A DNA stretch of 64,000 bases from a virus. Taxonomy: Duplodnaviria > Caudoviricetes. Position numbers and translations under genes: made by a program. The stretch covers positions 28,681 through 92,680 of the IMG/VR virus record IMGVR_UViG_3300031994_002623. One strand, given 5' to 3'. Positions 38,904-63,661 of this stretch are shown in pieces. A model generated the notes under the pieces. The model saw only the letters and a list, made by a program, of their open reading frames with translations. It was not told the origin of the DNA and did no database searches. Position 1 is the stretch's first letter. Each line of letters begins with the position of its first letter.

Positions 38904-38978
38904 GGGAACATACAGCAAGTATTTCTATTAACAGGTAATTAAAAATTGGGTTTTAAGAGTACAGTTAAAAATGTTCCC
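38904..38978 (+). ncRNA. CAGCA-stem (Y-like) RNA 1, AT-rich cargo
   Basis: GGGAACAT-ACAGCAA...ATGTTCCC. Confidence 0.7.
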
Positions 38979-39137
38979 TTTGCATAAAAAGGTCATCATT
39001 CGAGGATGATAGTTAGGTTACGAGACGCATGGTGTACAACATGTCTCACTTGGAAAAAATAGTGCCTCACGTGAGGGTAGTGTAATTCCGAATCGTGAAA
39101 ACGAGATTATCTATGGTGCTCTGACCTTTTACAACAT

Positions 39138-39210
39138 TGGGGTTTAGTATAATGGTAGTACGCAAGATTCTGGCTCTTGGTCTGTAGGGGTTCGATTCCC
39201 TTAATCCCAA
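39138..39210 (+). tRNA. tRNA-Gln(CTG)
   Basis: CAAGA-TTCTGGC-TCTTG. Confidence 0.85.
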
Positions 39211-39216
39211 CAAAAT

Positions 39217-39335
39217 TGGTCAATGGTGTAATGGTAGCACACCCTCAATTGGGCAGGGAGGTTCTGAGTTATAATGCACGTGTAAAGGCTCAGAGACGTT
39301 GAAAAACGGTGGTAGTTCGATTCTATCTTGACCGA
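39217..39335 (+). tRNA. tRNA-Gln-like gene with a ~50-nt structured variable-region insertion
   Basis: TGGTCAA/TTGACCG acceptor; normal D and T arms; TCTGAG/CTCAGA and CGTT-GAAA-AACG hairpins inserted. Confidence 0.55.
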
Positions 39336-39337
39336 CT

Positions 39338-39778
39338 ATGAATATAGAGAAAAGTTTCGACAGGGCATTTGAGAGAATGCACCAACGTAATTGGGAGAAG
39401 ATATATGTTTTGGTTGACATCCATGACACAATCTTCGAAGCTTGTTACCACAACAAAGAGGAACACAAGTGGTATCCTTTTGCGAAGGAAGCATTGGAAC
39501 TTATGAGCTATGCTAGCAATATTAGTCTCATTCTCTGGACATCATCTTACAGGGATACAATTGAAAGAGAATACGGAAAAGTGTTTGAAGAGAGCTATAT
39601 TAAGTTCGACTACATCAACATCAATCCAGAGACCAAGAACAATGACCTGTCATGCTTCGATGAGAAAACTTACTTTAATGTAGGTATCGATGATAAGTTT
39701 GGTTTTGATGCTGAAACAGATTGGGAAATATTGTATAACTACCTTGTCGAAGGAATTAGACTTGGTAAATTTAAGTAA
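39338..39778 (+). CDS. HAD-like hydrolase
   Basis: VDIHDTI, LILWTS, IDDK. Confidence 0.6.
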   Translation: MNIEKSFDRAFERMHQRNWEKIYVLVDIHDTIFEACYHNKEEHKWYPFAKEALELMSYASNISLILWTSSYRDTIEREYGKVFEESYIKFDYININPETKNNDLSCFDEKTYFNVGIDDKFGFDAETDWEILYNYLVEGIRLGKFK

Positions 39779-39781
39779 ACT

Positions 39782-40183
39782 ATGGAACTCGTTACGAAAG
39801 AACATCTGAATGCCAAAGACCCTTGCGGTATGGGTATTTATTTAAAGTGTGACATTCCTATTTGGGAAGAGTTTGCATTAGGACTCATTACAAGTGGAGG
39901 TATTGCTATAAACAATAACTTTAGGGGCATGAGGGCAATGTTCTGTCATACGGAAGATAACTCACTGCAAAAGGTGATTTGTATTGTCACACAGAATCCA
40001 AAAGAGCTAAAAATATATCGCTCATTTGAGGATGGATTCAGACTCGATGAAGAGAAAGGACGTATTGAGAATCTTAACATAACAAGATTCGATAGAAGAG
40101 ATAAAAATGTGTTTATAATTGAATATAAATATAAGCAAAAATACAAGGGAACTAACAGCAAGCGTTTAAACAATGAACTGTAA
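39782..40183 (+). CDS. Hypothetical protein
   Basis: ORF track. Confidence 0.45.
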   Translation: MELVTKEHLNAKDPCGMGIYLKCDIPIWEEFALGLITSGGIAINNNFRGMRAMFCHTEDNSLQKVICIVTQNPKELKIYRSFEDGFRLDEEKGRIENLNITRFDRRDKNVFIIEYKYKQKYKGTNSKRLNNEL

Positions 40184-40215
40184 ATTCGTATTAGTTGAAA
40201 AAAGTTCCCGTAAAT

Positions 40216-40309
40216 CGGAGGGTAACGGCAGCAGACTGTAAATCTGCCCTGCTTTAACAAATTGTCGTACTGGTCTCGCAGTAGGGGGGTTCGAATCCCT
40301 CCCCTCCGA
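40216..40309 (+). tRNA. tRNA-Tyr(GTA) with an internally permuted D-arm
   Basis: CGGAGGG/CCCTCCG; GCAGA-CTGTAAA-TCTGC; ACGGCA (40225) pairs with TGTCGT (40263) in the variable-arm loop. Confidence 0.7.
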
Positions 40310-40421
40310 CAAAGTGCGCATCATAGTAATATGAGTCTTTAGGCAACCTCTCTAAGAGCAGCATAAGACTATAGAGGTAATAATGCAAGAATTCTAAAAT
40401 ATTGGTTATGGTGGTACAAAT

Positions 40422-40495
40422 CTAGGTGTCAGCTAATTGGTTAAGCCTCTACGTTTGGAGCGTAGGAAGTGGGGGTTCGAGTCCCTCTACCTAGA
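40422..40495 (+). tRNA. tRNA-Pro(TGG)
   Basis: CTACG-TTTGGAG-CGTAG. Confidence 0.85.
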
Positions 40496-40502
40496 CAAAA
40501 AT

Positions 40503-40583
40503 CGAGTGATATCCCAGCCAAGGTTCTACAAAATTGGGGTAGTGGTATAGTAGAAAATGGTGGTTCGACTCCACCTCACTCGA
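40503..40583 (+). ncRNA. Anticodon-less tRNA-like RNA with a permuted D-arm pseudoknot
   Basis: CGAGTGA/TCACTCG and a T-arm; interleaved TCCCAG/TTGGGG and TTCTAC/GTAGAA stems. Confidence 0.6.
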
Positions 40584-40585
40584 CA

Positions 40586-40700
40586 AGGAATCTAGCAGCA
40601 GTCTAAGAAACTCCAGGCGAGTAGCTTAGTGGACTAAAGCCCTGGATTTTCCAGGAGACGTAGGTTCGAATCCTGCCTCATCTTAGTTGAAACGATTCCT
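40586..40700 (+). ncRNA. CAGCA-stem (Y-like) RNA 2 with tRNA-like D/T-arm cargo
   Basis: AGGAATC-TAGCAGCAG...GATTCCT. Confidence 0.7.
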
Positions 40701-40706
40701 GTATAT

Positions 40707-40780
40707 GGTGTACGTGGCCGAGAGGCTTAGGCGCAAGTTTGTGGCACTTGTATACGCAGGTTCGAATCCTGTCGTACACC
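40707..40780 (+). tRNA. tRNA-His(GTG)
   Basis: G-1:C73; CAAGT-TTGTGGC-ACTTG. Confidence 0.88.
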
Positions 40781-40781
40781 C

Positions 40782-40873
40782 AACACTAGTTTACAAGGGG
40801 TGTGATGGCAGCATGCGGAGGTGAGTGCCGAGGAACTGTTCGATTCAGCTTGTATGTGCGCATGGCTAGTGTT
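40782..40873 (+). ncRNA. tRNA-elbow mimic on an extended stem
   Basis: AACACTAG/CTAGTGTT and TACAAG/CTTGTA enclosing a D-like loop and CTG-TTCGATT-CAG. Confidence 0.45.
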
Positions 40874-40877
40874 AATT

Positions 40878-40950
40878 CGGGAAGTAGTTCAGTAGGTAGA
40901 ATACGTGCTTTGGGAGCATGGGGTCGCAGGTTCGAGTCCTGTTTTCCCGA
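40878..40950 (+). tRNA. tRNA-Pro(TGG)
   Basis: CGTGC-TTTGGGA-GCATG. Confidence 0.9.
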
Positions 40951-40952
40951 CA

Positions 40953-41097
40953 AGGAAACTTGCAGCAATTGACTTAGTTTCATTTTGCATCATAAGCGAG
41001 AGGTCGTGGGTTCGAGTCCCATCCCCGCAACAAGTTAGTATTAAATTGCGGGGTAGCTCAGTTGGTAGAGCTTTTTAGTAAACAACAAAGGTTTCCT
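40953..41097 (+). ncRNA. CAGCA-stem (Y-like) RNA 3 with a circularly permuted tRNA-Met(CAT)
   Basis: AGGAAAC...GTTTCCT; order anticodon arm, T arm, CCCCGCAA/TTGCGGGG, D arm. Confidence 0.8.
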
Positions 41098-41130
41098 GTT
41101 ATGGTAGCCCATTACCTTAAGTGGGTAAAT

Positions 41131-41203
41131 CGGGGTGTAGCTCAGTAGGTAGAGCACGGCATTTGGGATGCTGAGGTCGCACGTTCGAGCCGTGTCGCCC
41201 CGA
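41131..41203 (+). tRNA. tRNA-Pro(TGG)
   Basis: CGGCA-TTTGGGA-TGCTG. Confidence 0.9.
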
Positions 41204-41222
41204 CAACATTAATAAGATAAAC

Positions 41223-41537
41223 ATGGGAGAGTATAAGAAGATAACGAAGTATGATGTCGATTTCCCAGCCTATTGCTTATTCTTTATTAAAAGGATATTA
41301 GCAAATATAGATGAGGCTGAAATGGATGATGAGACAACCATGACTTTAATAATCAACACTCCAGACCACCCATATTGTTATGACGCATTTGAACTGGTGG
41401 TTAGGACACTTGAGAGAAAGGGGTTTCAAACAAGAATCCCTGGATTTAAAAGGGAGAAAACCGAAGGTAAACCAGATATGTTTCAGTATAAGTGGACAGT
41501 TAAAAAGATAAAAAATTGCGATGATTTACCATTTTAA
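41223..41537 (+). CDS. Hypothetical protein with an SSB-like DDLPF tail
   Basis: ORF track. Confidence 0.5.
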   Translation: MGEYKKITKYDVDFPAYCLFFIKRILANIDEAEMDDETTMTLIINTPDHPYCYDAFELVVRTLERKGFQTRIPGFKREKTEGKPDMFQYKWTVKKIKNCDDLPF

Positions 41538-41621
41538 TTGAAAAAAAATTTGGAATTAAGAAAAAAAATATATATCTTTGCACAGTAAAATTTTTCAAAA
41601 TAATAATTTTAAATAATAGTT

Positions 41622-42653
41622 ATGAAGAAAATTCTTTTAATGTTGACACTCTTGGCGAGTGTCGTTGTGAGTGCAAATGCACAGATTGCTACCGAGAATA
41701 GCAAGTTGTTTGATAACGTTGGCGTAGGTATCACCGCTGGTGCTTCAACACCCCTTGATTTCAACTCAATGTTCCCTGTTAACCCAAACGTGGGTTTGAA
41801 GGTGACAAAGGACATTACTCCTGTTGTTGGTTTCCAACTTGAGGGCTTGGCTGTTCTGAATGACAACCATTTCTCTGACCTTAAGACTGCTGTAAAGGCA
41901 ACAAATGTGGGACTTAATGGAGTATTGAATCTCTCTAATTTCATTTGGGGATACAGAGGTACTCCACGAGTATTCGAGGTTGGTGCAGTTGCTGGTATTG
42001 GATGGCTTCATGGATGGGACACGTCGGCTAATAGTTTGACAGCTAAGACAGGTCTTGACTTCGCATTTAACTTAGGTAATAAGAAGGCACATAGTTTGGT
42101 ACTAACGCCAGCAGTGTATTGGAATTTACGAAAGTTCGATGCAATCCAGTTCAACAAGAAAGGTGCGCAGCTAGCACTTAACTTGACTTACATCTATCAC
42201 TTCAAGACATCTAATGGTACACATCACTTCAAGACATACGATGTTGGTGCAATGATTGGAGAGATTGACCGTTTGAACGAAGAGCTTGCTAAGAAACCTA
42301 CAGAGGTGGAGGTTATCAAGTACGTCGAGAAGGAAGTACCTGCCAAGACAGATAATGTAGCAGTGGCAACAACTAACGGTGACACATGGATTGTAGCATT
42401 TAGTCTTGGTAGTGCAAAGTTGACTGAGGAATCTAAGTTCATCCTTAATCAGATTGGTAACGACGCAATTGTAGATGTAACTGCGACAGCATCACAGGAA
42501 GGTACTAAGGCATTCAACCAGAAACTCTCTGAGAAGCGTGCAAAGGCTGTTGCTGATTATCTCACCAATCGTGGTGTGAAGGTTAACAGTGCAGTCGGAA
42601 AGGGCGTAGACACTGTTAAGGGTAAGACAGCAGTTGTAACTACGCTTCAGTAA
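41622..42653 (+). CDS. OmpA-family outer-membrane protein
   Basis: Signal peptide, beta-barrel, C-terminal F..GSA.L...NQKLSEKRA.AVADYL domain. Confidence 0.88.
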   Translation: MKKILLMLTLLASVVVSANAQIATENSKLFDNVGVGITAGASTPLDFNSMFPVNPNVGLKVTKDITPVVGFQLEGLAVLNDNHFSDLKTAVKATNVGLNGVLNLSNFIWGYRGTPRVFEVGAVAGIGWLHGWDTSANSLTAKTGLDFAFNLGNKKAHSLVLTPAVYWNLRKFDAIQFNKKGAQLALNLTYIYHFKTSNGTHHFKTYDVGAMIGEIDRLNEELAKKPTEVEVIKYVEKEVPAKTDNVAVATTNGDTWIVAFSLGSAKLTEESKFILNQIGNDAIVDVTATASQEGTKAFNQKLSEKRAKAVADYLTNRGVKVNSAVGKGVDTVKGKTAVVTTLQ

Positions 42654-42845
42654 CAACATTTAGGAGAATATAGCTTATGCTTTGGCGGTGTCATGCAGAA
42701 AAACCGCAAGTTTATCAATCATCATCTGTCTACATTCTCCTTTTAAAAGATGATTAGGTAAACGGTTGCTGCGAATCGGTAAACAGCTCAGAACTAATAC
42801 CAAACCAGGTTTACTGCAATGGTAAATCATGAAGTTAGTTCACTT

Positions 42846-42917
42846 GCGGCAGTAGCTCAATGGTAGAATGCCACCTTGCCAAGGTGGAGGTTGCGGGTTC
42901 GAGTCCCGTCTGCCGCT
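42846..42917 (+). tRNA. tRNA-Gly(GCC)
   Basis: CCACC-TTGCCAA-GGTGG. Confidence 0.9.
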
Positions 42918-42924
42918 CAAATTT

Positions 42925-43005
42925 ACGAGTGTCGTATAACGGTGCATTTGCATATTATACCTGCTTGCCATGCAGGAGACGAGGGTTCGACTCCCTTCAT
43001 TCGCT
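42925..43005 (+). tRNA. tRNA-Gly(GCC) with a D-loop hairpin insertion
   Basis: CCTGC-TTGCCAT-GCAGG; TGCA-TT-TGCA in the D-loop. Confidence 0.8.
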
Positions 43006-43014
43006 CAAGATAGT

Positions 43015-43145
43015 GGAAACTTACAGCAAGATTTTTCTATTACTTCAAACTAAATGTGGATTAGTCAAAACGTAGGTTCGATTCCTACCCTCCCGACTAT
43101 TAATTAAAGCAACGGGAGGTTGAAATGTTGGATACTTTAGTTTCC
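43015..43145 (+). ncRNA. CAGCA-stem (Y-like) RNA 4 with a permuted tRNA-His(GTG)-like module
   Basis: GGAAACT...AGTTTCC; ACTAA-ATGTGGA-TTAGT, T arm, CCTCCCG/CGGGAGG. Confidence 0.8.
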
Positions 43146-43155
43146 TTTTCTTAAT

Positions 43156-43237
43156 CGGGATATAGCTCAGTGGTTAGAGCGGCCTCCGCAAGAGGTGATT
43201 CTAGATACAGGCGTTGGTTCGAATCCATCTATCCCGA
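43156..43237 (+). tRNA. Atypical tRNA-like gene with a 5-nt anticodon loop
   Basis: CGGGATA/TATCCCG; GCCTC-CGCAA-GAGGT; long variable region. Confidence 0.55.
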
Positions 43238-43243
43238 CACAAT

Positions 43244-43301
43244 CACTGGACTGGTTGCCCATGCCTAGGGTGGGATGGTGGTTCGAATCCATCACCAGTG
43301 A
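43244..43301 (+). ncRNA. 58-nt D-armless tRNA-like RNA
   Basis: CACTGG/CCAGTG, CCCAT-GCCTAGG-GTGGG, canonical T arm. Confidence 0.45.
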
Positions 43302-43422
43302 CATCAAAAGAGATTTGAGGCTCAACGTAACGTCAGTAGTCCCTGGAAGTCGCCAAGCGTCTCCAAACTAGCTGCCTAAACGTATGTGTAGGTATAGTGG
43401 TAACGGTTACAATCCACTCTAT

Positions 43423-43503
43423 GCGAGTGTCGTATAACGGTGCGTCAGCGTATTATACCTGCCTTCCAAGCAGGGGACGAGGGTTCGACTCCCTTCATTC
43501 GCT
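43423..43503 (+). tRNA. tRNA-Gly(TCC) with a D-loop hairpin insertion
   Basis: CCTGC-CTTCCAA-GCAGG; paralog of 42925. Confidence 0.82.
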
Positions 43504-43537
43504 CGATATTTAATAATCTATATTAAAACAAATCGTT

Positions 43538-43966: not shown

Positions 43967-44112
43967 GGAAACGTACAGCAATAGTTATCGTTTAGAAAAG
44001 CATTCCAAGCTAGGGGTCGCAGGTTCGAGTCCTGCCCACGCTACAAGACTATAATAACATGGCGTGGTAGCTCAGTTGGCAGAGCACTAAAAAATAAACA
44101 ACAAACGTTTCC
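43967..44112 (+). ncRNA. CAGCA-stem (Y-like) RNA 5 with a permuted tRNA-Gly(TCC)-like module
   Basis: GGAAACGT...ACGTTTCC; AGC-ATTCCAA-GCT, T arm, CCACGCTA/TGGCGTGG, D arm. Confidence 0.8.
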
Positions 44113-44120
44113 TTTTTCTT

Positions 44121-44193
44121 GCGGTTATAGCTCAGAAGGGAGAGCATTTGTCTTCCAGACAAAGGGTCGGAGTCTCGAAATCTCCTAACCGCT
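44121..44193 (+). tRNA. tRNA-Gly(TCC) with an atypical T-loop
   Basis: TTTGT-CTTCCAG-ACAAA. Confidence 0.75.
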
Positions 44194-44810: not shown

Positions 44811-44940
44811 AGGAAACATCCAGCACTATAATCTGTTTAAAAGGAATTGCTGCCTTCGGGCTTCGTGGGTTCGAATCCCACACGTCCTTTGGGCGTTGGT
44901 GGAGTGGCTAAACACGGCTATTGAAAAAACAATGTTTCCT
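44811..44940 (+). ncRNA. CAGCA-stem (Y-like) RNA 6 with a permuted class-II-tRNA module
   Basis: AGGAAACAT...ATGTTTCCT; GCC-TTCG-GGC, T arm, ACGTCC-TTT-GGGCGT, D arm. Confidence 0.8.
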
Positions 44941-44946
44941 GTCTAT

Positions 44947-45712: not shown

Positions 45713-45840
45713 GTGAGATTTAGAAATATCACTACGGAGAGGAAATCCCTCCTGCGAAGGAGGAAATACACGGTCAAGTGGTGCGAGTCCACTCAATACG
45801 GATGGCACGTAGTGGTAAGTTGCAACTTTCTACTTCTCAC
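45713..45840 (+). ncRNA. 128-nt palindromic-bulge RNA A
   Basis: GTGAGA/TCTCAC, TATCACTACG/CGTAGTGGTA, GTTGCAAC bulge. Confidence 0.55.
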
Positions 45841-45938
45841 ATCATATCTCTGCGTTGGAATCGATTTGGAACGGGGGAGCACATAAACACAGCTTACCGT
45901 CGCAAGGTTAAACTCCGAGCACGACGCAGAGTCATTCT

Positions 45939-46083
45939 AAGGAACGTACAGCAGTCTAAGAAAAATTTAAACATTTGTATTTTATTTGTATTATTTTCGG
46001 ACAGGACTGAAGAAGCGTTAATCCCGAAAGGGGCGTGAAGCATCAGTTAACAGTCTGCCAGGACTTTAAACTGGTCGTTCCTT
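45939..46083 (+). ncRNA. CAGCA-stem (Y-like) RNA 7, non-tRNA structured cargo
   Basis: AAGGAACG-TACAGCAG...CGTTCCTT. Confidence 0.7.
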
Positions 46084-46090
46084 TTTAATA

Positions 46091-46440
46091 GGTAATGATA
46101 TAGAAGATGTCACAAGAAAATAAACAAAAAGTTGAAAAGGTTTTCCTACAAAATAGGTAAAGAAGTTATTCGCCTTTACTGAGGAAGTACTGACAAGAGA
46201 AAACACCTCAATGCACCGAGAATCTACCATACAATATAATTATGTGTGGCAAAAGTGAAAAGGAGTAGGACCGTAGTGGTCACACGTTAACCGTCTCTAC
46301 AGTTATTATTAATTAGTAGGGAAAATGCCTAGAATTAGAGGCATTTGTACAACTCTGAGATTATTGATAACGATGTTAAAAAGACTGCATATACATCTAT
46401 GACTTATTATTGTTTATGCGCCATCTTCTATATTATCACC
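46091..46440. repeat. IR-bounded ~350-bp cassette with structured non-coding content
   Basis: GGTAATGATATAGAAGATG...CATCTTCTATATTATCACC; homologous to the IRs at 13976/14309. Confidence 0.7.
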
Positions 46441-46449
46441 TTTTAATAT

Positions 46450-46538
46450 GTAGGGGTAAAACGTAATTGGATGACCGTCCTGGTCTACGAAACCAGTCTA
46501 TCGAGAGGTAGTTGTGGGTTCGAATCCCACCCCCTATA
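46450..46538 (+). tRNA. tRNA-Arg(ACG) with a long variable arm
   Basis: CTGGT-CTACGAA-ACCAG; CTATC-GAGA-GGTAG. Confidence 0.8.
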
Positions 46539-46572
46539 CAAAAAAAATTGTTTAATTTAAAAACTAAAGGAA

Positions 46573-49752: not shown

Positions 49753-50355
49753 ATGAAAGTAAATTGGATTAACGAGAAGGAAGCTCTTGAGAAACTGATT
49801 AGTGAGGGAGTATCATATGAGCGCATTGGCAGACAGTATGGCGTTACTGGTGCTTCTGTGAAGAAGGCTGCAAGGAAAATGGGTATTGAGCTTGAACAAA
49901 GGCGAGAAATAAACCCAGATGAACATTTCAATAAAGGTAATCGCAAAACTCATATTTGTGCCAATTGTGGCAAAGAATTTGAACATAGATATACCTCTGA
50001 TAATAAATATTGTTCATTTAATTGCCAGCACGAACATGAATATAAATTATTTATTGAACGTTGGAAAAATGGTGATGAATCTGGAGTTACTGGTAAGTAT
50101 GGAATATCAATGCACATACGTAGGTATCTCTTCGAAAAGAATAATGGTAAATGTCAAATATGTGGATGGGGAGAGGAAAACCCAGTAACACATAAAATTC
50201 CATTACAAATTCATCACATAGATGGAGATTGCACAAACAACAAGGAGGAGAATCTTCAACTGTTATGCCCAAACTGTCATTCGTTAACGGATACATTCGG
50301 TAATCTTAACGAGAACTCTAAAAGGATATACAGGAAACAGAAGGGCAACTTGTAA
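49753..50355 (+). CDS. HNH (homing) endonuclease
   Basis: N-terminal HTH, CxxC zinc finger, C..CG...LQIHHIDGD..NN...NLQLLCPNCH. Confidence 0.9.
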   Translation: MKVNWINEKEALEKLISEGVSYERIGRQYGVTGASVKKAARKMGIELEQRREINPDEHFNKGNRKTHICANCGKEFEHRYTSDNKYCSFNCQHEHEYKLFIERWKNGDESGVTGKYGISMHIRRYLFEKNNGKCQICGWGEENPVTHKIPLQIHHIDGDCTNNKEENLQLLCPNCHSLTDTFGNLNENSKRIYRKQKGNL

Positions 50356-52701: not shown

Positions 52702-52786
52702 GCGTCGTTGGCAGAGAGGTTATGCAACAGACTCTTAATCTGTACTGGAAACGGTGACGTGGGTTCGAGTCCTACACGACGCACCA
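52702..52786 (+). tRNA. tRNA-Lys(CTT) with a long variable arm and encoded CCA
   Basis: ACAGA-CTCTTAA-TCTGT; ACTG-GAAA-CGGT. Confidence 0.85.
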
Positions 52787-53241: not shown

Positions 53242-53369
53242 GGGTACATACAGCAAGATAATATTACATTCGAGCAAACTTTTAATTTGTGTGTAACGTG
53301 GGTTCGACTCCCACCCCCTCCGCAATTTAATACAACATGGAGGGGTTGAAATGACGGTTTAGTGTACCC
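53242..53369 (+). ncRNA. CAGCA-stem (Y-like) RNA 8 with a permuted tRNA-Lys(TTT)-like module
   Basis: GGGTACA...TGTACCC; GCAAA-CTTTTAA-TTTGT, T arm, CCCCTCCG/TGGAGGGG. Confidence 0.8.
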
Positions 53370-53459: not shown

Positions 53460-53543
53460 GCCTTCGTGGGACAGTGAACGACTCCACTTGACTTGTAATC
53501 AAGATGCTTATGCGCACCGTTGGTTTGAATCCAACCGAAGGCT
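53460..53543 (+). tRNA. tRNA-Thr(TGT) with a long variable arm
   Basis: CTTGA-CTTGTAA-TCAAG. Confidence 0.8.
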
Positions 53544-53563
53544 CAAAAAAAAAGGAGAATGTT

Positions 53564-56160: not shown

Positions 56161-56613
56161 ATGAGTAAGATAGCATTATTCCCAGGAAGTTTTGACCCAT
56201 TCCATAAGGGTCATAGGTATGTGGTAAATGCAGCATTACAACTGTTTGACGAGGTATATGTCTGTGTTGCGGTGAATCCACAGAAGAAAGGCTACTTTGA
56301 GCCTAATGCACGAGTAAGTATGATTGAGACAATCTTTCGTGAAGAGCCTCGTGTGAAGGTTATCAGTACTGATGGACTGGTATTCAAGAAAGCCCAGGAG
56401 ATTGGTGCTTCATTCATCATCAAGGGTGCAAGAAACGGCAGTGATTTTACTGATGAAGTAGCACAAGCCGATATAAACTGGAATATTGGGAAGATGCCTA
56501 CAATAGTGATTCCAACACCTAATACATTATCCTATATAAGTAGTACTGCAATAAGGAGTATACTTCAGACTTGTAAGGGTGATTCTAGCCTAGTAAAAGA
56601 CCTAGTGTGTTAA
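56161..56613 (+). CDS. coaD: Phosphopantetheine adenylyltransferase
   Basis: FPGSFDPFHKGH, NPQKK, KGARN..DF..E, ISST. Confidence 0.88.
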   Translation: MSKIALFPGSFDPFHKGHRYVVNAALQLFDEVYVCVAVNPQKKGYFEPNARVSMIETIFREEPRVKVISTDGLVFKKAQEIGASFIIKGARNGSDFTDEVAQADINWNIGKMPTIVIPTPNTLSYISSTAIRSILQTCKGDSSLVKDLVC

Positions 56614-57939
56614 CAAAATAAAAAAATTAGCTGAAAATTTGGAATTACGAAAAAAAATATATATCTTTGCACCGTGATTCAGAAACAGTAAGTTTAACGA
56701 ATAAATTAACGACAATGATTGAAGGAGCAATTTTAGTGGCAATCGGTTGGTTTGGTCACAAGTATAAAGACCCCATCGTCAAGACAGTCAAGAACTGGAT
56801 GGGTAAGTAAACCGACAAAGGATATGGCATCGAGCCTGTCGGTGAAACATATGTTGGATTAAAATACACTTCGTAAACCGTGAGTGAGAATATAGTTTAG
56901 GTGAAAACATCTGTTGACAGGAAGTTCATGCCAAAGTTATAAGTGGGAGGAGAGAACCGTAATAGTAGGTTGGAAACAACCTTCGGGTCTCCTTGAAAGG
57001 CCGAGTCACACTTTCAATAACAAACGGTCCCAATTTTTTAAGAGATTATCAGTCAAGCGGCTTTAAGCCCCGTACCATGCATAGGTTAGTATGGCGTATA
57101 TTGGTCTTAACAACGTTAGTGCAAGACAAGTGCTCGATGGCTTGTAAATAATTATGGGTACAGAGTGCGAAGCATGCTTGAGAAGTTTAATAGGTATAAA
57201 CGCAGGCAGAGGCTGACAACAGCCGAACTGAGACAGAAGGTTCAAATCCTCTCCGCAAGCACAATACAGAAATATATGACACTGACTTCGGAACGTGTAT
57301 GAAAGCTGTAGAAAAGGTTCACATAGAGTGTCGCAAGGCATTGAAAGGGTTACGTAACCTATGTGAATCCATAGATGACACTTCGGAAGAGACGGAGTAC
57401 TTTACTCGTGGTCTAGTAACGAGTCGGATTTTCCACTCCAAGTTAGGGAGAAACTGGGGGATGTATGAGAAAACATACTTTACAACATTCTCACGCAAGT
57501 AAGACTAGTATCTATATGGTTGAACTTGCATCATCCTTGAAAGGCGAATGGGTAACGCACCAGCACACAAGGCTTCGGATGTAATCTGCGGCAGTGGTTG
57601 GAAAAAGTAGGTTCGAATCCTCACTGCAAGGGCAACGGTAGTCTATACATTTCGGACTTCGGGAAGAAGTTGATGGCTATCTAAGGGTGGGTTTCTAGAG
57701 TAAAACATAAGGCGGTACATCCCACTACTCGAATGGCACTGTGGAATAGACATGGCGTGACCCAAGCTACGAGGAAGACTGGGAGACGGTTTACGATTTT
57801 TATAATACTAAAAAAATTGGAGGCAACTTTTAGCCCTCATTTGGCTACTGGTTGTGACACGTGGTTATAATTCCACCCTAAGAAGGTAAGGCAAGCTTGT
57901 CCAATGACAGGCAGTTTCGAGTGATACCACGTATTTTAT

Positions 57940-58015
57940 AGGACATTAGCTCAGCTGGTTCAGAGCGTCTGGTTTACACCCAGAAGGTTCGTGGGTTCGA
58001 ATCCCTCATGTCCTA
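57940..58015 (+). tRNA. tRNA-Val(TAC)
   Basis: TCTGG-TTTACAC-CCAGA. Confidence 0.88.
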
Positions 58016-58034
58016 CAACGGGGAGACATCCCCA

Positions 58035-58099
58035 GGGCAGTTAGTTCATGTGGTAGAACATCGGATGCGAAGAATGGGATTCAAACGCCTTACTGTCCA
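58035..58099 (+). pseudogene. Degenerate tRNA-like gene (truncated anticodon arm)
   Basis: GGGCAGT/ACTGTCC, normal D arm, TCG-GATG-CGA. Confidence 0.45.
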
Positions 58100-58103
58100 C
58101 AAA

Positions 58104-58167
58104 GGAAGCATACAGCAAAATTCTATAGGACTCAACTTGTAAGTGATAATTCTAGAAAACTGCTTCC
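58104..58167 (+). ncRNA. CAGCA-stem (Y-like) RNA 9, minimal
   Basis: GGAAGCA-TACAGCAA...TGCTTCC. Confidence 0.7.
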
Positions 58168-58198
58168 GATTTTAAAAGAAATATATAAAGGAAAATAT

Positions 58199-58759
58199 AT
58201 GGCAGAAAAAGTAGGTGTAATTATAGCACGTTTACAGCCTATACATAATGGGCATCTGGAACTGATACGCCAAGCACTTAATGAGAACGACAAGGTTCTT
58301 GTACTGGTAGGTTCAGCTGACAAGCTTAATAAGAGGAATCCTATTCCTATCAATATGAGAATGGAAATGGCATGTGATGCAATAGTCACTACCTTCAGTG
58401 AAGATAAGGACAGGATAAACGTGCAGCCTCTAGATGACCTTACTGATGAGTCTGATAATTCTCATGACTGGGGATTCTATCTCTACAGTAAAATTGTAGG
58501 ACTTACAAGGTCTCCAGAGTTTACCATCTATTATTCAGATGGATTCGAAATCATTATGCTCTGGTTTCCACCATTCATCACAAGAAACTATGTGTCATTT
58601 AAGTTGAATGCCAGGGGAACGATTGCTGAGAATATCTCAGCGACTTCAGTCAGACATATGATTATGAATAAAGATGATGAAGCACTTAAGAAATTCGTGC
58701 CAGATAGCGTCTTCGAAAAAAGAGACATATTGAGACAGTTCATAGGTGCTTATCAATAA
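58199..58759 (+). CDS. NMN adenylyltransferase-like (NadM-type) nucleotidyltransferase
   Basis: ARLQPIHNGH, VGSA, RNP, ISAT.VR. Confidence 0.8.
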   Translation: MAEKVGVIIARLQPIHNGHLELIRQALNENDKVLVLVGSADKLNKRNPIPINMRMEMACDAIVTTFSEDKDRINVQPLDDLTDESDNSHDWGFYLYSKIVGLTRSPEFTIYYSDGFEIIMLWFPPFITRNYVSFKLNARGTIAENISATSVRHMIMNKDDEALKKFVPDSVFEKRDILRQFIGAYQ

Positions 58760-58767
58760 AAGATAGT

Positions 58768-59010
58768 ATGAATTACGATGTAGGACAACCATTCATTGAG
58801 GTTACGTTCCCAACTAGGGGTACTAAAAAGGCTCTGTTTAGGCGTGAGGATATTCTCAGAGTTACAGAAACAATAACTCCAGATGGAGACCCTCTTGTGA
58901 CTATCTTTGTAAAGCCTTTGAGTAGTAATTGCTGCAAAGAATATCTAGAGTGGTATTTCGACGGTACTATGGAGAAATTTAGGGAGTCTACAAAGACCGT
59001 GTATATGTAG
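58768..59010 (+). CDS. Hypothetical protein
   Basis: ORF track. Confidence 0.45.
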   Translation: MNYDVGQPFIEVTFPTRGTKKALFRREDILRVTETITPDGDPLVTIFVKPLSSNCCKEYLEWYFDGTMEKFRESTKTVYM

Positions 59011-59028
59011 TACGTTGGTGATATTAAT

Positions 59029-59108
59029 CGGGGTGTATCTCCTCTCGCTGATACCGAGTAGAAAGAGTAGTAGGTTGCACGCAGGTTCGACTCCTGCCGC
59101 CCCGACCA
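59029..59108 (+). tRNA. tRNA-Ile(GAT) with an internally permuted D-arm and encoded CCA
   Basis: CGGGGTG/CGCCCCG-ACCA; CTCG-CTGATAC-CGAG; GAGTAGTAGGTT after the anticodon arm. Confidence 0.7.
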
Positions 59109-59111
59109 ATT

Positions 59112-59225
59112 TGAAGGATACCAGAGGAGAACTAGGGCAACCTAGATGTAGACAAATGGGCATTACTTTCGTGAGTAATGTGCTCTTAGGAGCTTCGGTG
59201 TGTGCAAATCCACCTCCTTCAACCA
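59112..59225 (+). ncRNA. Giant-D-loop tRNA-like RNA, copy A (encoded CCA)
   Basis: TGAAGGA/TCCTTCA-ACCA; GAGGAGAA-hairpin-ATGTAGACAAA. Confidence 0.8.
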
Positions 59226-59284
59226 GTTTAAAAGGAGTTCTTTGATATTTTTACATATTAGGATATATTTATCTTACAACAAAT

Positions 59285-59656
59285 GGGCTTGAAACGGAAT
59301 AGACAGCTATACATTTGGTAGGAGACAAGCAGTGGGCATACACTAGAAATAGCGAAAAAATATAAATGGCGAGATAGATTTCTCTCCTGCTTACGAGTAC
59401 GCTGTAGCAGCTTAAAGTGAGCCGAGAGACCAGGCTCTTAGGAACAGAACATCCTGGTAACTTGTTTCTTGGTGTCATGAAACCAAGTGGTGGCTATGAC
59501 CGATTGACATCCAGTCAATCCCCCAATGTTTTCCTCGTTTTCTCAAAATGAGGTGGTCCCAAAGACGGTGGCGCAAGCCATTGCACATTTTGGAAAGCTT
59601 GTATAATCTCTTATGGGATGGTAGTTTGGACCGCAGTTCGACTCTGCGCAAGTCCA
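59285..59656 (+). ncRNA. ssrA: tmRNA; tag (A)GEIDFSPAYEYAVAA*
   Basis: GGGCTTG/CAAGTCC-A acceptor with G3:U; T-loop; tag ORF 59368-59415. Confidence 0.9.
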
Positions 59657-59680
59657 CGTAAGAATCTGATAATCAGATAG

Positions 59681-60256
59681 TTACACGATAAGATTAGATG
59701 TATAAACAGATATTTCTTTTAGGAATTTTCTGACCTCTATATCTGATTTAGTACTTTTCATTAGGTTAATAGGTGTTGATATAAACTGTATATTACCCTT
59801 TACATACCCCAATGAGGAATCAATCCTATCCAAAGAGGCTCTGTGAAAAAAATCAATTTCATTCACATTAGAATTTTCTGGTAGGATTAGGCTCAAACCT
59901 GTATAAGGACAGATACCATTCTGTTTTTCCCAGGTTTCTTTTAAATCATCTAGGGTTATATCAACATCTTTGAAACGTCTTGTTACGCACCTGTAGGTAT
60001 ATCTAAATGGAGTATATTCATCCCTATGATTTCTGCAAATGTGTTTTAAATGTTCCAACATTTTGTCTGAAGCTGGCTTATATGGCATTTCCTTTCGGAC
60101 TTTAGACGTTCCTTTGCTAACGCATTCACGACAGCAGTAAAGATGTCTACCTTTTGATTTAATTCGTGTGACTTCTTTTAGTGGACGTTCAAATTCTTTT
60201 CCACAGTTATCGCAGATAACTTTCACTAATTTACCTTGATTTTTATATTTATTCAT
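59681..60256 (-). CDS. HNH-type endonuclease with a zinc finger
   Basis: CDNCGKEF...YCCRECV; GICPYTG...SLDRIDSSLGYVKGN...N. Confidence 0.8.
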   Translation of the reverse strand: MNKYKNQGKLVKVICDNCGKEFERPLKEVTRIKSKGRHLYCCRECVSKGTSKVRKEMPYKPASDKMLEHLKHICRNHRDEYTPFRYTYRCVTRRFKDVDITLDDLKETWEKQNGICPYTGLSLILPENSNVNEIDFFHRASLDRIDSSLGYVKGNIQFISTPINLMKSTKSDIEVRKFLKEISVYTSNLIV

Positions 60257-60429
60257 AATGTATATGTATTTTATTATAAATATCTGGTAAGGTGGAGAAA
60301 TACGGAGTTTAATAGGTTTTCTTTCCGTTATTGTCCACTTGAAAAAAAAAAATGAAAAATTTCTTCTGAAAAATTTGGATTTTACGAAAAAAATATATAT
60401 CTTTGCACCGTCAATTAAAAACAATAATT

Positions 60430-60681
60430 ATGGAGAAGATATTAGAAAGTGAATTCAGAAACAACCTGTATAAGTCTCTAGTAGACGCAGGATACGAGAA
60501 GAAAGAGGCTCAGAAAATTGTAGGTGTGAAGTATCACGGAGCACTGAAGGCTGACCTTAAGCAAAGGCTGGAAACACTATCAGCCCTGGTAGAGGACGAA
60601 ACTTATGATGGTTTAGTCTTCAACGGAGAAGAACTTAATGGTCTAGTAGATGAGCTTAAAAAGGTCAAAGGTGTAATTTAA
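60430..60681 (+). CDS. Hypothetical protein
   Basis: Follows the promoter at 60398. Confidence 0.5.
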   Translation: MEKILESEFRNNLYKSLVDAGYEKKEAQKIVGVKYHGALKADLKQRLETLSALVEDETYDGLVFNGEELNGLVDELKKVKGVI

Positions 60682-60847
60682 TAAAAAAAAGTTCCTAAAA
60701 AATTTGGAATTACGAAAAAAAATATATATCTTTGCACCGTGAAAATATAAACATGTTGATAACAAGTACCACTGTTAAGCTAAGACTGCTGAAATGATTG
60801 CAGAGTGTTGATGAAGCTTCATACGGATGAACAACATGTTTCAATAT

Positions 60848-60931
60848 AGTGGGATAGTGTAATGGTAACATGCTAGGCTCATAACCTAGAGACATTAATT
60901 GCTAGCGTTGGTTCGAATCCAACTCCCGCTA
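60848..60931 (+). tRNA. tRNA-Met(CAT) with a long variable region
   Basis: CTAGG-CTCATAA-CCTAG. Confidence 0.8.
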
Positions 60932-60936
60932 CTCTT

Positions 60937-61046
60937 TGAGAGATACCAGAGGAGAACAGTCGCAAGGCTGATGTAGACAAATGGGCAGTACGGTAAGTAT
61001 TGTGTTACTTCGGTAACTTCGTGGTGTGCAAATCCCACTCTCTCAA
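60937..61046 (+). ncRNA. Giant-D-loop tRNA-like RNA, copy B
   Basis: TGAGAGA/TCTCTCA; same conserved motifs as copy A. Confidence 0.8.
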
Positions 61047-61053
61047 CTATATT

Positions 61054-61165
61054 TGGTAGATACGAGAGGAGAACTGGAATAATCCAGATGTAGACAAATC
61101 GGCATTAAGTTCGTGCTTAATGTGCCTCTTAGGAGGCTTCGGTAGTGCAAATCTACCTCTACCAA
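61054..61165 (+). ncRNA. Giant-D-loop tRNA-like RNA, copy C
   Basis: TGGTAGA/TCTACCA; D-stem CGA/TCG covariation. Confidence 0.8.
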
Positions 61166-61357
61166 CAAATTGGTAAAGGGATAAAGCGGGACTAAGGTAG
61201 TCTAAAGCCCTTGAATCATAGAAAGCGAACGATACCCAAAGGTGTAAAAAGTGTTCCATGTTGAACTACCATAGGAAGGAGCGTATACGTGCTGACGTGG
61301 AAGTGTACAGCCACAACTGAGCGACTCGCAAGCTTTCGTGAACCAATAAACTTCTTT

Positions 61358-61467
61358 TGAAGGATACCAGAGGAGAACAGTCGCAAGGCTGATGTAGACA
61401 AATGGGCAACATGGTAAGTGTTGTGCTCTTTCGAGAGCTTCGGTGTGTGCAAATCCACCTCCTTCAA
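61358..61467 (+). ncRNA. Giant-D-loop tRNA-like RNA, copy D
   Basis: TGAAGGA/TCCTTCA. Confidence 0.8.
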
Positions 61468-61662
61468 CATTGAATCTCGCAGCTAAAACAGTAGTGATGA
61501 GGCTAGTGTTTACTAGAACAATGCGCAAAATGTCTAGGAAGCTGTGGGTAGGTCTTCAAGTTAGTCTAGAATGATTTGTTGATTCGAAAAATCCTCATCA
61601 ACAATACGTTAATTCTTAACGCAAAGAGTTTTTGCGGTGGACAAAGTAAAAAAACCACCTTT

Positions 61663-61774
61663 TGGTAAGTACCAGAGGAGAACTAGGGAAACCTAGATGT
61701 AGACAAATGGGCATCAAGTTCGTGCTTGATGTGTCGCTAAGGCGGCTTCAGTAGTGCAAATCTACTCTTACCAA
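61663..61774 (+). ncRNA. Giant-D-loop tRNA-like RNA, copy E
   Basis: TGGTAAG/CTTACCA. Confidence 0.8.
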
Positions 61775-61789
61775 CTACTTCTCACGTTA

Positions 61790-62648
61790 TAGGCTTCGGC
61801 TGAAAACGAGGAAGATGGCTAGCTTTCGTAGCCATAAGGATAATCCAGTGATGGGATAAATGTGATGGGTTTAATCAACTACTCCGTCGCAGATGTTTGG
61901 AAACAGGCATTTCACAGAAAAGGACAAGGTGCGGTATCTTGTTCTGGTAACACAGTGCAGGGTGCTATCGAGGCTAAAAGGCTTCGGTTGAGTGGAAACA
62001 CAATAGAGTCCGAGTCGAATTCGATGCAATACTCACCAGGTGGCGTGTTGGATTCAGTTAATTTCTCAGCTTCACAGTGAATTAATAAGCTGAAAGCAGT
62101 GTGAGGGGCTTGCCCCAAGCATACGAGGTTTTAATAGCAGAGTAGACTTGTGGTGAGTCTGGTGCAGGATGGCGATTTAGTGGGCTGTGCTCAAAAGGCA
62201 CGGATGCTAAGGGTCGCACCTCGTCATCCAGTAGTTGGGAGTTGTAGCTCAAGTGGTAGAGCAGCCGACTTGAAATCAGCGTGTTATAGGTTCGATTCCT
62301 ATCGATTCAGTTAAAATAATTTGAATTAAAGCAAAAGTGTGCGACACTGGGCAGATAAAATGCACTTATCGCTCCTGCAATATGGAGGCATCGGGGACTC
62401 GCAAGGAATCCGATGAACGAGTAAGAGTAGTCATCTGAGTCAGCTGGAGGCATCCAGTGAGTCTGCAAGAGCTTGGTGGTGAAATGAATGTTATGATTCT
62501 GTACCGAAAGGTTTAAACCAGTAAGAGTTTGGTGGTTTTCGCAAAACCATCGTGCATGGTGTCTACGGCTATCGTAAGGTAGCGTGTGAACAACAACGTC
62601 CAACCGTTGTGAAAGGGCATCTACAATAAGACAACGTTCTCAGTCTTT
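61790..62648 (+). ncRNA. Large ornate RNA (GOLLD-like) with an embedded tRNA-like gene
   Basis: ~860 nt with no credible CDS; many GNRA/UUCG hairpins; long-range AATCCAGT/GTTGGATT pairing; GOLLD identity from recall only. Confidence 0.5.
62238..62310 (+). tRNA. tRNA with a TGA (Ser) anticodon but a short variable loop
   Basis: Canonical D/T arms; loop CTTGAAA; weak acceptor stem. Confidence 0.6.
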
Positions 62649-62658
62649 TGTATTTTAT

Positions 62659-62779
62659 GGGGTTATAGTTTAGCGGTTAAAATAATTTGTTACGAGCTAG
62701 TACTATACGCACTGACTTCGGGAAGTGTTGACGTGCTAGTAAATGATAAACGACGTTGGTTCGAATCCTTCTAGCCCTG
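62659..62779 (+). tRNA. tRNA-like gene whose anticodon arm is replaced by a long hairpin
   Basis: GGGGTTA/TAGCCCT, D and T arms; CTAGTAC/GTGCTAG extension. Confidence 0.55.
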
Positions 62780-62782
62780 CAA

Positions 62783-62910
62783 ATTGAGATTTACATAGTA
62801 GAAAAGCGAAGCACGTGTGAATCGGAGGTAACCAGTTCTAGTAGAAGCCTTCATCGGTGGGCTGGGCATAAATGAGGAGATACTACTATGTAGCTTGCAA
62901 GAATCTCAAT
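62783..62910 (+). ncRNA. 128-nt palindromic-bulge RNA C
   Basis: ATTGAGATT/AATCTCAAT, TACATAGTAG/CTACTATGTA, CTTGCAAG bulge. Confidence 0.55.
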
Positions 62911-62944
62911 CTTTTTAGGTAAGAGAATCTAATTTTTACAATAT

Positions 62945-63271
62945 ATGAAAGATTTTACTTACAGCGGTTTTGAGAACCAGGAAACATGTAATCACCTCAA
63001 AGGAGGAGAAACATGTAAGGTGACTGGTATTGGAAATTCCATGACACCTATTTTGAAATCAAGGCAACCAGTTATATGTGAGCCTGTGACTGATGAGACC
63101 ACACTAAAGAAGAGAGACATAGTTCTCTGTAAGGTGAGAGGACATCATTACTTACACTTGATACACGCCATACGGAACGATAAAGAGTTCTTAATTGGTA
63201 ATAATCATGGTCACATGAATGGCTGGGTTGGCAGAAACCAGATTTACGGTAAAGTCGTAGAAATTCTTTAA
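62945..63271 (+). CDS. S24/S26 peptidase-like protein
   Basis: GNSMTP...DIVLCKV.G..YLH...GNN.G..NGW. Confidence 0.6.
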   Translation: MKDFTYSGFENQETCNHLKGGETCKVTGIGNSMTPILKSRQPVICEPVTDETTLKKRDIVLCKVRGHHYLHLIHAIRNDKEFLIGNNHGHMNGWVGRNQIYGKVVEIL

Positions 63272-63412
63272 GGTCAAATGGTTGTATGAGGGTTCGATTC
63301 CCTTGTGACTGGCAAATGAAACAGATGGATGGATGGTCACTAAACAATCTGTTTTCATTGTATGCTCTTCATGGTATGCAGTTTGTTAGTTCTGTGCAAA
63401 AACTAACACTTT

Positions 63413-63484
63413 GGGGTTTGTAGTGTAATGGCTAGCACAAGTCCTTTGCAAGGATTTAGAGGGGTTCGAATCCCACATTCTCCA
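63413..63484 (+). tRNA. tRNA-Ala(TGC), near-duplicate of 49609 with a mismatched acceptor
   Basis: Nearly identical body; 3' strand CATTCTCC gives two U-U mismatches. Confidence 0.7.
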
Positions 63485-63485
63485 C

Positions 63486-63559
63486 AGTGACAGAGTGAAA
63501 CGGCTTACACGCTAGGCTCATAACCTAGAAACACCAGGTTCGACTCCTGGGTGTCGCTA
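63486..63559 (+). tRNA. tRNA-Met(CAT)
   Basis: CTAGG-CTCATAA-CCTAG. Confidence 0.78.
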
Positions 63560-63594
63560 CAAAACCACTCTGCTGCAAAAGCAGAAAAAACCAA

Positions 63595-63661
63595 GGAAGC
63601 TAACAGCAAGTCTCCTTTAGGCGGTAGAAATGCCGCTGTCACATAAACAGGAATGGCTTCC
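63595..63661 (+). ncRNA. CAGCA-stem (Y-like) RNA 10, GNRA-hairpin cargo
   Basis: GGAAGCT-AACAGCAA...GGCTTCC; GCGGTA-GAAA-TGCCGC. Confidence 0.7.

Follow-up and report, generated by a model that had tools for sequence, protein, structure and literature searches.

What are the small elements that stand between the tRNA genes of a phage tRNA island, each closed by its own pairing ends and each carrying the same unpaired motif? The question is raised by the IMG/VR virus record IMGVR_UViG_3300031994_002623 (Duplodnaviria; Caudoviricetes). The window analysed here is the final 64 kb of this 92.7-kb record (64,000 nucleotides (nt), positions 28,681 to 92,680); the completeness of the record is estimated at 37%, its close relatives are huge phages of 295-413 kb, and near-identical DNA was found in gut or rumen metagenomes of sheep, cattle and goat. 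From 38.2 kb to the window end runs a tRNA island with 37 tRNAs (ARAGORN) and a transfer-messenger RNA (tmRNA), and at the gathering threshold Rfam reports tRNAs and the tmRNA only in the window. We find at least eleven further elements, all on the + strand and 63-146 nt long, which we call handle RNAs. Their 5' and 3' ends form a 7-bp stem that is followed by an invariant CAGCA, usually as UACAGCAA(G), and this handle encloses a cargo that differs between copies. We consider it fairly probable that the handle RNAs are a Y-RNA-like repertoire docked by a divergent Ro60-like protein of the same phage, whose binding to them, like their processing and function, we infer. Ro60 with its Y RNAs is a classic but poorly understood RNA-surveillance particle. 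A sequence-only reading of this DNA had already proposed a constant handle with interchangeable, Y-RNA-like tRNA-mimic cargo and a link to DUF2828 genes. Covariation, a Ro60-like fold and linkage in five of five distant phages sustain that core, while its count of ten copies and its assignment of D arms had to be amended.

The position of the motif is nearly fixed. CAGCA starts 8-10 nt from the 5' end of an element and is invariant, in agreement with the earlier estimate of about 9 nt. The pattern GGNANCNNNCAGCA has 9 matches in the window, all on the + strand, against 0.33 expected and at most 3 in any shuffle, and a stem-plus-CAGCA scan of the entire record found elements within the tRNA island only. 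Relatives were gathered through the DUF2828 protein (three) and through an OmpA-like gene inside the island (eleven more loci). The former hold 7-10 copies each, on one strand, with no match to a reversed control pattern, and the latter hold dozens of further copies. Five complete or near-complete (95-100%) relatives have 6-14 motif matches each, 53 of them in the orientation of the Ro-like gene and 1 against it, mostly within a tRNA island of about 40 kb; the reversed control pattern gave 3 matches in the same five. When 106 distinct elements were aligned on CAGCA, G(-8), C(-4), A(-1), CAGCA and A(+5) proved invariant or nearly so, as did the C and G partners on the 3' strand. In these elements the internal loop is A-rich on its 3' side, and the phage profile has U at -2. 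The smallest family member, of 41 nt, consists of the terminal helix (P1), AACAGCAA opposite GAAAAAA, and a 4-bp hairpin.

Covariation was quantified in 31 short family members from ten related phage records. Across the 7-bp terminal helix 93% of cells are paired, and three pairs covary. Two-sided changes occur in 36 cells compared with 12.5 +/- 3.9 in shuffles, a value that none of 500 shuffles reached, and pairing falls to 15-60% when the partner columns are shifted by 1-3. The eighth pair is inconsistent, failing in 16 of the 31 sequences; thus the covariation of a stem previously put at 7-9 bp stands, but only 7 bp are consistent. The handle RNA family is real and is selected as RNA. A covariance model, R1, was built from the short members; because it penalises long cargo, it recovers only seven of the eleven window copies at E <=1, and it adds no new ones. 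No Rfam family corresponds to the handle, even in permissive scans, and no published description of the family was found in the literature. A pairing of CAGCA with UGUUG, suggested by RNAalifold for one subgroup (the modules without a D arm, described below), was rejected as a general feature, being present in four of six sequences there and in no other subgroup. Five more distant relatives reached through the OmpA-like gene (L051-L055) are without GG-type handles; they are also without tRNAs, so their lack of handles is uninformative. One of these loci has a distant DUF2828 gene with an ACAGCAA handle 3.1 kb away.

The Ro60-like protein and its linkage to handle RNAs

Which protein could such a handle serve? 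The candidate is a protein of 558 amino acids (aa) encoded at 23537-25213 (+), in which Pfam assigns DUF2828 and DUF7788 (vWA) only and which belongs to PHROG 850, 'RNA-binding protein'. We modelled it with AlphaFold from 18 homologues. The top 11 Foldseek matches of the model in the PDB are all Ro60/Rsr/TROVE structures (520-579 columns, E 1.7e-6 to 6e-4), and VIA-align gave Z of 12.4-16.1 over 255-398 aligned residues for nine Ro60/TROVE entries, compared with <=10 for generic vWA domains. On these matches, the modelled protein is built like Ro60, as a ring of helices with a vWA/MIDAS domain after it; only Ro60/TROVE structures match it along its entire length, and it is no sequence member of TROVE. 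An RtcB RNA ligase (454 aa; PF01139, E 1.5e-56) is encoded 5.7 kb downstream of the DUF2828 gene at 30937-32301 (+). The arrangement recalls the rsr-yrlBA-rtcBA operon of Salmonella (PMC4201824, PMC7790460), which responds to damaged tRNAs (PMC7790460), and RtcB is possibly a functional companion of the Ro60-like protein.

The protein is present in all five complete or near-complete relatives with handle RNAs, and by tblastn it has homologues in 574 cultured phage records, whose hosts include Escherichia, Salmonella, Vibrio, Listeria, Campylobacter, Enterococcus, Staphylococcus, Bacillus and Aeromonas. Co-occurrence with DUF2828 genes had been named beforehand as a check on the sequence-only reading. 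We scanned five very different cultured phages for ACAGCAA preceded by a strand that pairs downstream. In all five, such RNAs adjoin the DUF2828 gene or sit in a tRNA array, while shuffled loci gave 0.4-0.6 matches per locus. The Escherichia coli Felixounavirus VpaE1 has copies 340, 508 and 993 nt 3' of the gene, within a tRNA array that starts there. Leptolyngbya phage Lbo-JY46 has five head-to-tail copies of 52-90 nt with differing stems (L057:6925-7274), 11-309 nt 3' of the gene. Two copies lie 129 and 442 nt 5' of the gene in an Enterococcus phage, and two lie 25 and 111 nt 5' of it in Campylobacter phage CP8. In these four of the five phages, the RNAs adjoin the gene and share its strand; those of Vibrio phage D490 are in the tRNA array, 4-7 kb from the gene. 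P1 has no GG start in the distant phages, and several of their handle RNAs also hold a T arm, a closed acceptor and a D arm. The universal handle is therefore only the helix with (U)ACAGCAA. Linkage across hosts of four bacterial phyla is the strongest argument that RNA and protein work together.

Cargo between the handle strands

The cargo is modular and consists mostly of tRNA parts: permuted modules, an unpermuted body, look-alikes of anticodon arms, and other hairpins. A hairpin with a 7-nt tRNA-type loop, in many cases a T arm, is found in 64 of the 106 elements compared with 21.7 +/- 3.7 in shuffles. Handle RNAs 4 (40953-41097, 145 nt) and 6 (43967-44112, 146 nt) share one order: first a hairpin whose loop has 7 nt, next a T arm, then an acceptor of 7 bp with a closing loop of 17-18 nt, and last a D arm. 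The hairpin loop of handle RNA 4 is AUCAUAA and its closing loop has 17 nt; R1 gives this copy, which lay outside its training set, 21.1 bits. Handle RNA 6 is Gly-like, with a mini-hairpin whose loop is AUUCCAA and whose 'anticodon stem' has 3 bp only. Five orthologues of it keep the T and acceptor helices through compensatory changes, with the closing loop free to vary. Both helices covary in this group and also in the group without a D arm, which is represented here by the His-like handle RNA 5 (43015-43145, 131 nt; hairpin loop AUGUGGA, T arm, closed 7-bp acceptor) and the Lys-like handle RNA 9 (53242-53369, 128 nt; P1 GGGTACA/TGTACCC, hairpin loop CUUUUAA, T arm, closed acceptor). These two modules have a conserved TTGAAATGNNGG at the place of the D arm, which in handle RNA 5 is replaced by TTGAAATGTTGG. 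Handle RNA 7 (44811-44940, 130 nt; motif variant UCCAGCAC) combines a T arm, a 5-6-bp acceptor closed by TTT and a class-II-like D arm.

How close are these modules to YrlA? The gathering threshold of the Rfam YrlA family (RF02553) is 69 bits, and no match reaches this level in the window or in seven related loci. Below it are matches at 43993-44117 (40.2 bits, full model, E 8.5e-6), 40998-41077 (38.8 bits) and 44840-44945 (25.4 bits). The YrlA order of T arm, loop-closed acceptor and D arm is found in the elements at 40953 and 43967 and loosely in that at 44811; the two modules without a D arm and the six remaining elements do not have it. Where five permuted tRNAs had been proposed, modules with a T arm and a closed acceptor are indeed present, three of them matched by YrlA, but the His-like and Lys-like ones are without a D arm. 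After rotation in silico and removal of the handle, ARAGORN called mostly Met-CAT (handle RNA 4), His-GTG, Gly-TCC and Lys-TTT, which is weak evidence given the many junctions tried.

A single copy with unpermuted arms had also been described. P1 of handle RNA 3 (40586-40700, 115 nt; AGGAATC/GATTCCT) surrounds a tRNA-like body at 40615-40684 that Rfam scores as tRNA with 47.3 bits; the anticodon loop of this body, however, is just 5 nt long (6 nt in an orthologue), and in seven relatives Rfam tRNA matches likewise lie inside the handles of this subfamily. The short members often carry a look-alike of an anticodon arm, i.e. a 4-5-bp stem with a 7-nt loop such as CUGUAAA, CUUUUAA or UUUGGGU. Handle RNA 1 (38904-38978, 75 nt; P1 GGGAACAT/ATGTTCCC, then ACAGCAAG) has a small hairpin with a Pro-like loop (TTGGGT) and scores 48.1 bits with R1 (E 6e-8), to whose training set it belonged. 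Handle RNA 2 (40147-40209, 63 nt; P1 GGGAACT/AGTTCCC, then AACAGCAAG; R1 58.8 bits) is the eleventh copy: the ten elements known before all have the starts and the pairing ends ascribed to them, and all lie on the + strand, but the count was one short. Its cargo is the hairpin ATGAA-CTGTAAA-TTCGT, with the loop CTGCAAC in the orthologue of relative G001. Handle RNA 10 (58104-58167, 64 nt; R1 50 bits) has minimal cargo and lies 31 nt upstream of a cytidylyltransferase-like open reading frame (ORF), and handle RNA 11 (63595-63661, 67 nt; R1 38.7 bits) holds a G+C-rich hairpin. The cargo of handle RNA 8 (45939-46083, 145 nt; P1 AAGGAACG/CGTTCCTT) is a conserved hairpin unrelated to tRNA. It is kept between phages (L035:1738-1876, L047:6613-6783) as GAAGCGTTAAT...GGGGCGTGA(A/G)GCATCAGTTAACAG, and by eye it recalls rRNA-like hairpins.

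In the anticodon-like loops, the shape is conserved and the anticodon is not. Orthologues of the Lys-like module have GTT, GTT and GTC in place of TTT (loops CTGTTAA, CGGTTAA and CTGTCAA), and U33 is lost in two orthologues of relative G001, which have A33 and G33. Similarity of the modules to the phage tRNAs that have the matching anticodon is no greater than to other tRNAs, and on this ground descent in the recent past from the Gly and Lys tRNA genes next to them was rejected. The modules may possibly act as decoys for host anticodon nucleases, an idea weakened by the differing anticodons, the occasional loss of U33 and the lack of any special closeness to cognate phage tRNAs.

Similar known systems, the proposed particle and other explanations

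Y RNAs dock Ro60 through an end helix and a neighbouring motif, which is GGUCCGA in animals, GNCGAA in YrlA and CGAA, within a bulge, in the Yrl RNAs of phage phiLo (PMC4201824, PMC12135203). The handle RNAs have this general plan of a terminal end helix with a conserved motif in or beside it. Like YrlA (PMC4201824) and the Yrl1 and Yrl2 RNAs that accompany Ro60 in Thermus phage phiLo, with their terminal stem and unpaired CGAA (PMC12135203), they have a motif alongside the stem and several paralogues per genome, and three of the phage modules repeat the YrlA succession of T arm, loop-closed acceptor and D arm (PMC4201824). As in YrlA systems, the genome encodes a Ro60-fold protein, and RtcB lies nearby. 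The differences are just as clear. YrlA has GNCGAAN0-1G near its 5' end (PMC4201824); this motif is absent from the handle RNAs, in which CAGCA, as (U)ACAGCAA, stands in its place, in accord with the earlier remark that the two motifs differ. The protein is DUF2828/DUF7788 without a TROVE match. At least 11 RNAs are scattered in the tRNA array in place of one or two beside the gene, and their cargo is far more varied, including anticodon-arm-like hairpins, tRNA-like bodies and minimal forms of 41-65 nt. The system would work like Ro60 with YrlA-type Y RNAs, yet by sequence neither its RNA nor its protein is a member of those families.

A second likeness is to the Class I RNAs of Dictyostelium, in which a short covarying end stem is followed, directly after its 5' strand, by the 11-nt motif CCTTACAGCAA (PMC7919456). 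The phage consensus xCnUACAGCAA matches 8-9 of its 11 positions, and the Class I example GTTGACCTTACAGCAA...GTCAACTG (PMC7919456 supplement) reads like the minimal phage elements. Class I RNAs share with the phage RNAs a variable interior, an A-rich stretch 5' of the 3' strand, a conserved 5' G and many paralogues, tens of them in Class I; unlike the phage RNAs, they are eukaryotic, 42-65 nt long, transcribed from DUSE promoters of their own and without tRNA-like cargo (PMC7919456). The phage RNAs, by contrast, lie inside a tRNA operon with no promoter signal above chance. Class I RNAs are reported as restricted to Dictyostelia (PMC7919456). The outgroup search of the same study lists an Arabidopsis candidate, TGTTTTCATTACAGCAATC...GAAAACTG (covariance-model score 40), and a Capsaspora candidate, both with the stem plus ACAGCAA layout (PMC7919456 supplement), and plants are reported to have DUF2828 proteins. 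In the Leptolyngbya phage, four of the five handle RNAs are followed by CTGATA, which recalls the CUG(U) 3' tail of Class I RNAs.

On the reading that we favour, the eleven small non-coding RNAs would be cut from a long tRNA transcript, probably by the enzymes that process the flanking tRNAs; we propose this because the spacers to those tRNAs are 2-10 nt and because scans of the island yield no more promoter-like or terminator-like sites than chance would. The 7-bp end helix would close each RNA and leave (U)ACAGCAA(G) single-stranded next to it, opposite the A-rich 3' strand, as a docking site for the Ro60-like ring protein, in the way that the terminal helix and loop motif of Y RNAs dock Ro60. 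The interior would be an exchangeable module: a YrlA layout, a tRNA-like body with a crippled anticodon loop, a look-alike of an anticodon arm or an unrelated hairpin. Such a particle, probably an undescribed kind of Ro/Y-RNA particle, would present tRNA-shaped surfaces. The tRNA-shaped cargo, the presence of RtcB and the damaged-tRNA response of the Salmonella operon suggest a role in the fight between phage and host over tRNAs, either in quality control or repair together with RtcB or in the titration of host factors that bind tRNA. Public sequencing runs, available as assembled contigs without RNA ends or strand so that coverage is no proof of transcription, include six metatranscriptome runs with part of the region. 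From a single sheep sample, two RNA libraries have mismatch-free contigs over 45713-46497 and 57725-58462, fully covering handle RNAs 8 and 10 at a depth several-fold over that of other phage contigs of the same run, which is a weak hint that these two are expressed. Among the joints listed, no back-joined contig lies at a handle RNA.

Several observations weigh against a Ro60/Y-RNA particle. The YrlA matches are far below the gathering score and confined to the tRNA-like core, and the YrlA stems do not align to the handle. The model of the protein is of moderate quality (predicted local distance difference test (pLDDT) 67.5), and its template-modelling (TM) scores against Ro60 are 0.27-0.35. 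TROVE (PF05731) has no match in the 92.7-kb record, and phmmer and a profile search against PDB sequences gave no match to solved Ro60. In this phage, the DUF2828 gene is 13.7 kb from the first handle RNA and so not adjacent to it, and linkage through tRNA arrays could just reflect a shared translation or RNA module. Finally, for the Class I RNAs, which share the motif, the direct binder reported is an RRM protein, Rnp1A, and not a Ro-like protein (PMC7919456). Is the DUF2828 protein a mere neighbour, with the handle bound instead by RtcB, a host enzyme of tRNA processing, an RRM-type protein resembling Rnp1A or another such factor? The RtcB gene in the window would suit this account as well. 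However, tight same-strand adjacency to DUF2828 in four of the five distant phages has no counterpart for RtcB, which is not annotated in the 17-kb loci of VpaE1, CP8, the Enterococcus phage and the Leptolyngbya phage, and we hold such another factor to be quite unlikely. Slightly better placed, though still unlikely, is a cassette for processing or stability that works without the Ro-like protein, in which the handle marks RNase cuts or protects pieces and downstream mRNAs and the cargo is decaying tRNA debris. The elements do fill tRNA-like slots with their short spacers, P1 has the 7 bp of an acceptor stem with U-A after it, in the manner of U8-A9, the two minimal copies at 58104 and 63595 lie just upstream of ORFs, and the chance-level promoter and terminator signals imply that processing is needed. 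Debris, by contrast, would not be conserved from phage to phage while its T and acceptor helices take up compensatory changes. In addition, the handle tracks the DUF2828 gene where tRNAs are few or absent, as with the five tandem copies of the Leptolyngbya phage, and an invariant single-stranded motif of 6-7 nt is more typical of a protein-binding site than of a substrate of RNase P or RNase Z.

The tRNA-like modules themselves pose a narrower question, namely whether they are precursors of working tRNAs, with P1 joining the ends, ligation (e.g. by RtcB) giving a circle, and RNase P and 3' processing opening the acceptor loop. Cyanidioschyzon merolae and other algae have permuted tRNA genes in which, as in the phage modules, the 3' half precedes the 5' half and a spacer loop joins the acceptor strands; the phage modules differ in that the break is at the D/anticodon junction without a bulge-helix-bulge site, that parts of the cloverleaf are missing or degenerate, and that the same handle also closes non-tRNA cargo. 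The phage junction is instead a 7-bp helix with an internal loop about 20 nt from the tRNA-like core. RtcB is present, the acceptors have 7 bp, their closing loops start N-C(A/U) as do the trailers of the tRNAs next to them, the rotated sequences are called as tRNAs by ARAGORN, a back-joined RNA-library contig exists for another RNA of the island, and in M. smegmatis RNase P cuts the YrlA, whose acceptor has 7 bp, and CCA is added to it (PMC4201824). Nevertheless, no more than 4-5 of the 11 copies hold such a module, the Lys-like and His-like ones have no D arm, the anticodon stem of the Gly-like one has 3 bp, orthologous 'anticodons' vary with loss of U33, and canonical phage tRNAs exist for all four anticodons. 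The splicing endonuclease PF01974 was not found in the five complete relatives, the ends left by RNase P and RNase Z are by established enzymology no substrates of RtcB, and in a circularised form the handle would stay behind, a large insert separating the D arm from the anticodon arm. With so few tRNA modules, missing cloverleaf parts, drifting anticodons, canonical tRNAs at hand and no splicing endonuclease in the complete relatives, circularisation into working tRNAs is improbable, more so than either of the preceding accounts. Lastly, the elements might be repeats at the DNA level that give no RNAs, such as miniature inverted-repeat elements or recombination or homing sites: their ends are inverted repeats of 7-9 bp, and the region holds genes for homing endonucleases (HNH at 49753-50355). 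Mobile elements keep identical ends, though, whereas these repeats vary and stay complementary; the cargo is unrelated between copies while T-arm and acceptor helices covary; and the elements run strictly in the direction of the tRNAs. For practical purposes, the compensatory changes together with this fixed orientation exclude the last explanation.

If the handle RNAs do form a particle with the Ro60-like protein, this would be a second branch of Ro60/Y-RNA surveillance, with a Ro60-shaped but sequence-unrelated protein, a different docking motif and a much richer, modular set of RNAs. It would offer a concrete explanation for part of the unannotated space in phage tRNA arrays, and it would give a molecular lead that can be tested on the Class I RNAs of social amoebae, whose function has been open since 2004. 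Members of the protein family are found in hundreds of records of cultured phages, among them coliphages of the Felix O1 type and phages that infect Listeria, Enterococcus, Staphylococcus, Campylobacter and Vibrio, so that the idea is testable in standard laboratory systems. Should the tRNA-shaped cargo counter host defences that cut tRNAs, it would be a new type of RNA-based counter-defence. A wider idea, which we find possible but doubtful, is that handle and DUF2828 protein make up one ancient ribonucleoprotein family across phages of many bacterial phyla and eukaryotes. Class I RNAs would then be its eukaryotic members and the DUF2828 protein their missing partner, and the phage particle would offer exchangeable tRNA parts as renewable baits or adaptors in the contest over tRNAs, with RtcB resealing baits that are cut.

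Neighbouring genes and RNAs

The genes 5' of the tRNA island include those for IF3, a sigma factor, DnaJ, TyrRS, NAD synthase, RtcB and the DUF2828 and DUF7788 protein. Host-like translation and stress genes are dense over 17890-37414, where an AAA ATPase, a sigma-70-type factor, SSB, TelA and a formate/nitrite-transporter-like protein are also encoded, and two nucleotidyltransferase (NMNAT-like) genes lie within the island at 56161-56613 and 58199-58759. A search of the region for near-identity to cultured phages gave tRNA-sized matches only.

Some of the tRNAs are unusual in length. Types that are normally short-armed (Glu, Arg, Lys, Thr and Met) reach 85-90 nt with extra sequence at 38306-38394, 46450-46539, 52702-52786, 53460-53544 and 60848-60932. 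Handle insertions were rejected as the cause, as none of these tRNAs contains CAGCA. Just 3' of the tRNA at 44121-44193 lies a structured RNA at which, in a sheep-rumen metatranscriptome run (X6), a 271-nt contig of depth 58 joins 44479 back to 44199 (281 back; shorter side 120 nt); the DNA run has no joint of this kind among those listed. The contig is a hint of a 281-nt circular or tandem form of this RNA in a phage that encodes RtcB. The phage-encoded tmRNA at 59285-59657 has the tag GEIDFSPAYEYAVAA, and a weak match to the permuted-tmRNA model (59047-59415, 38.3 bits compared with a gathering score of 47) overlaps it. At 62167-62646 there is a match to the GOLLD RNA (Rfam RF02032, full model) with 70 bits, compared with a gathering score of 150, and E 1.8e-16, and a tRNA at 62238-62310 is embedded in it.

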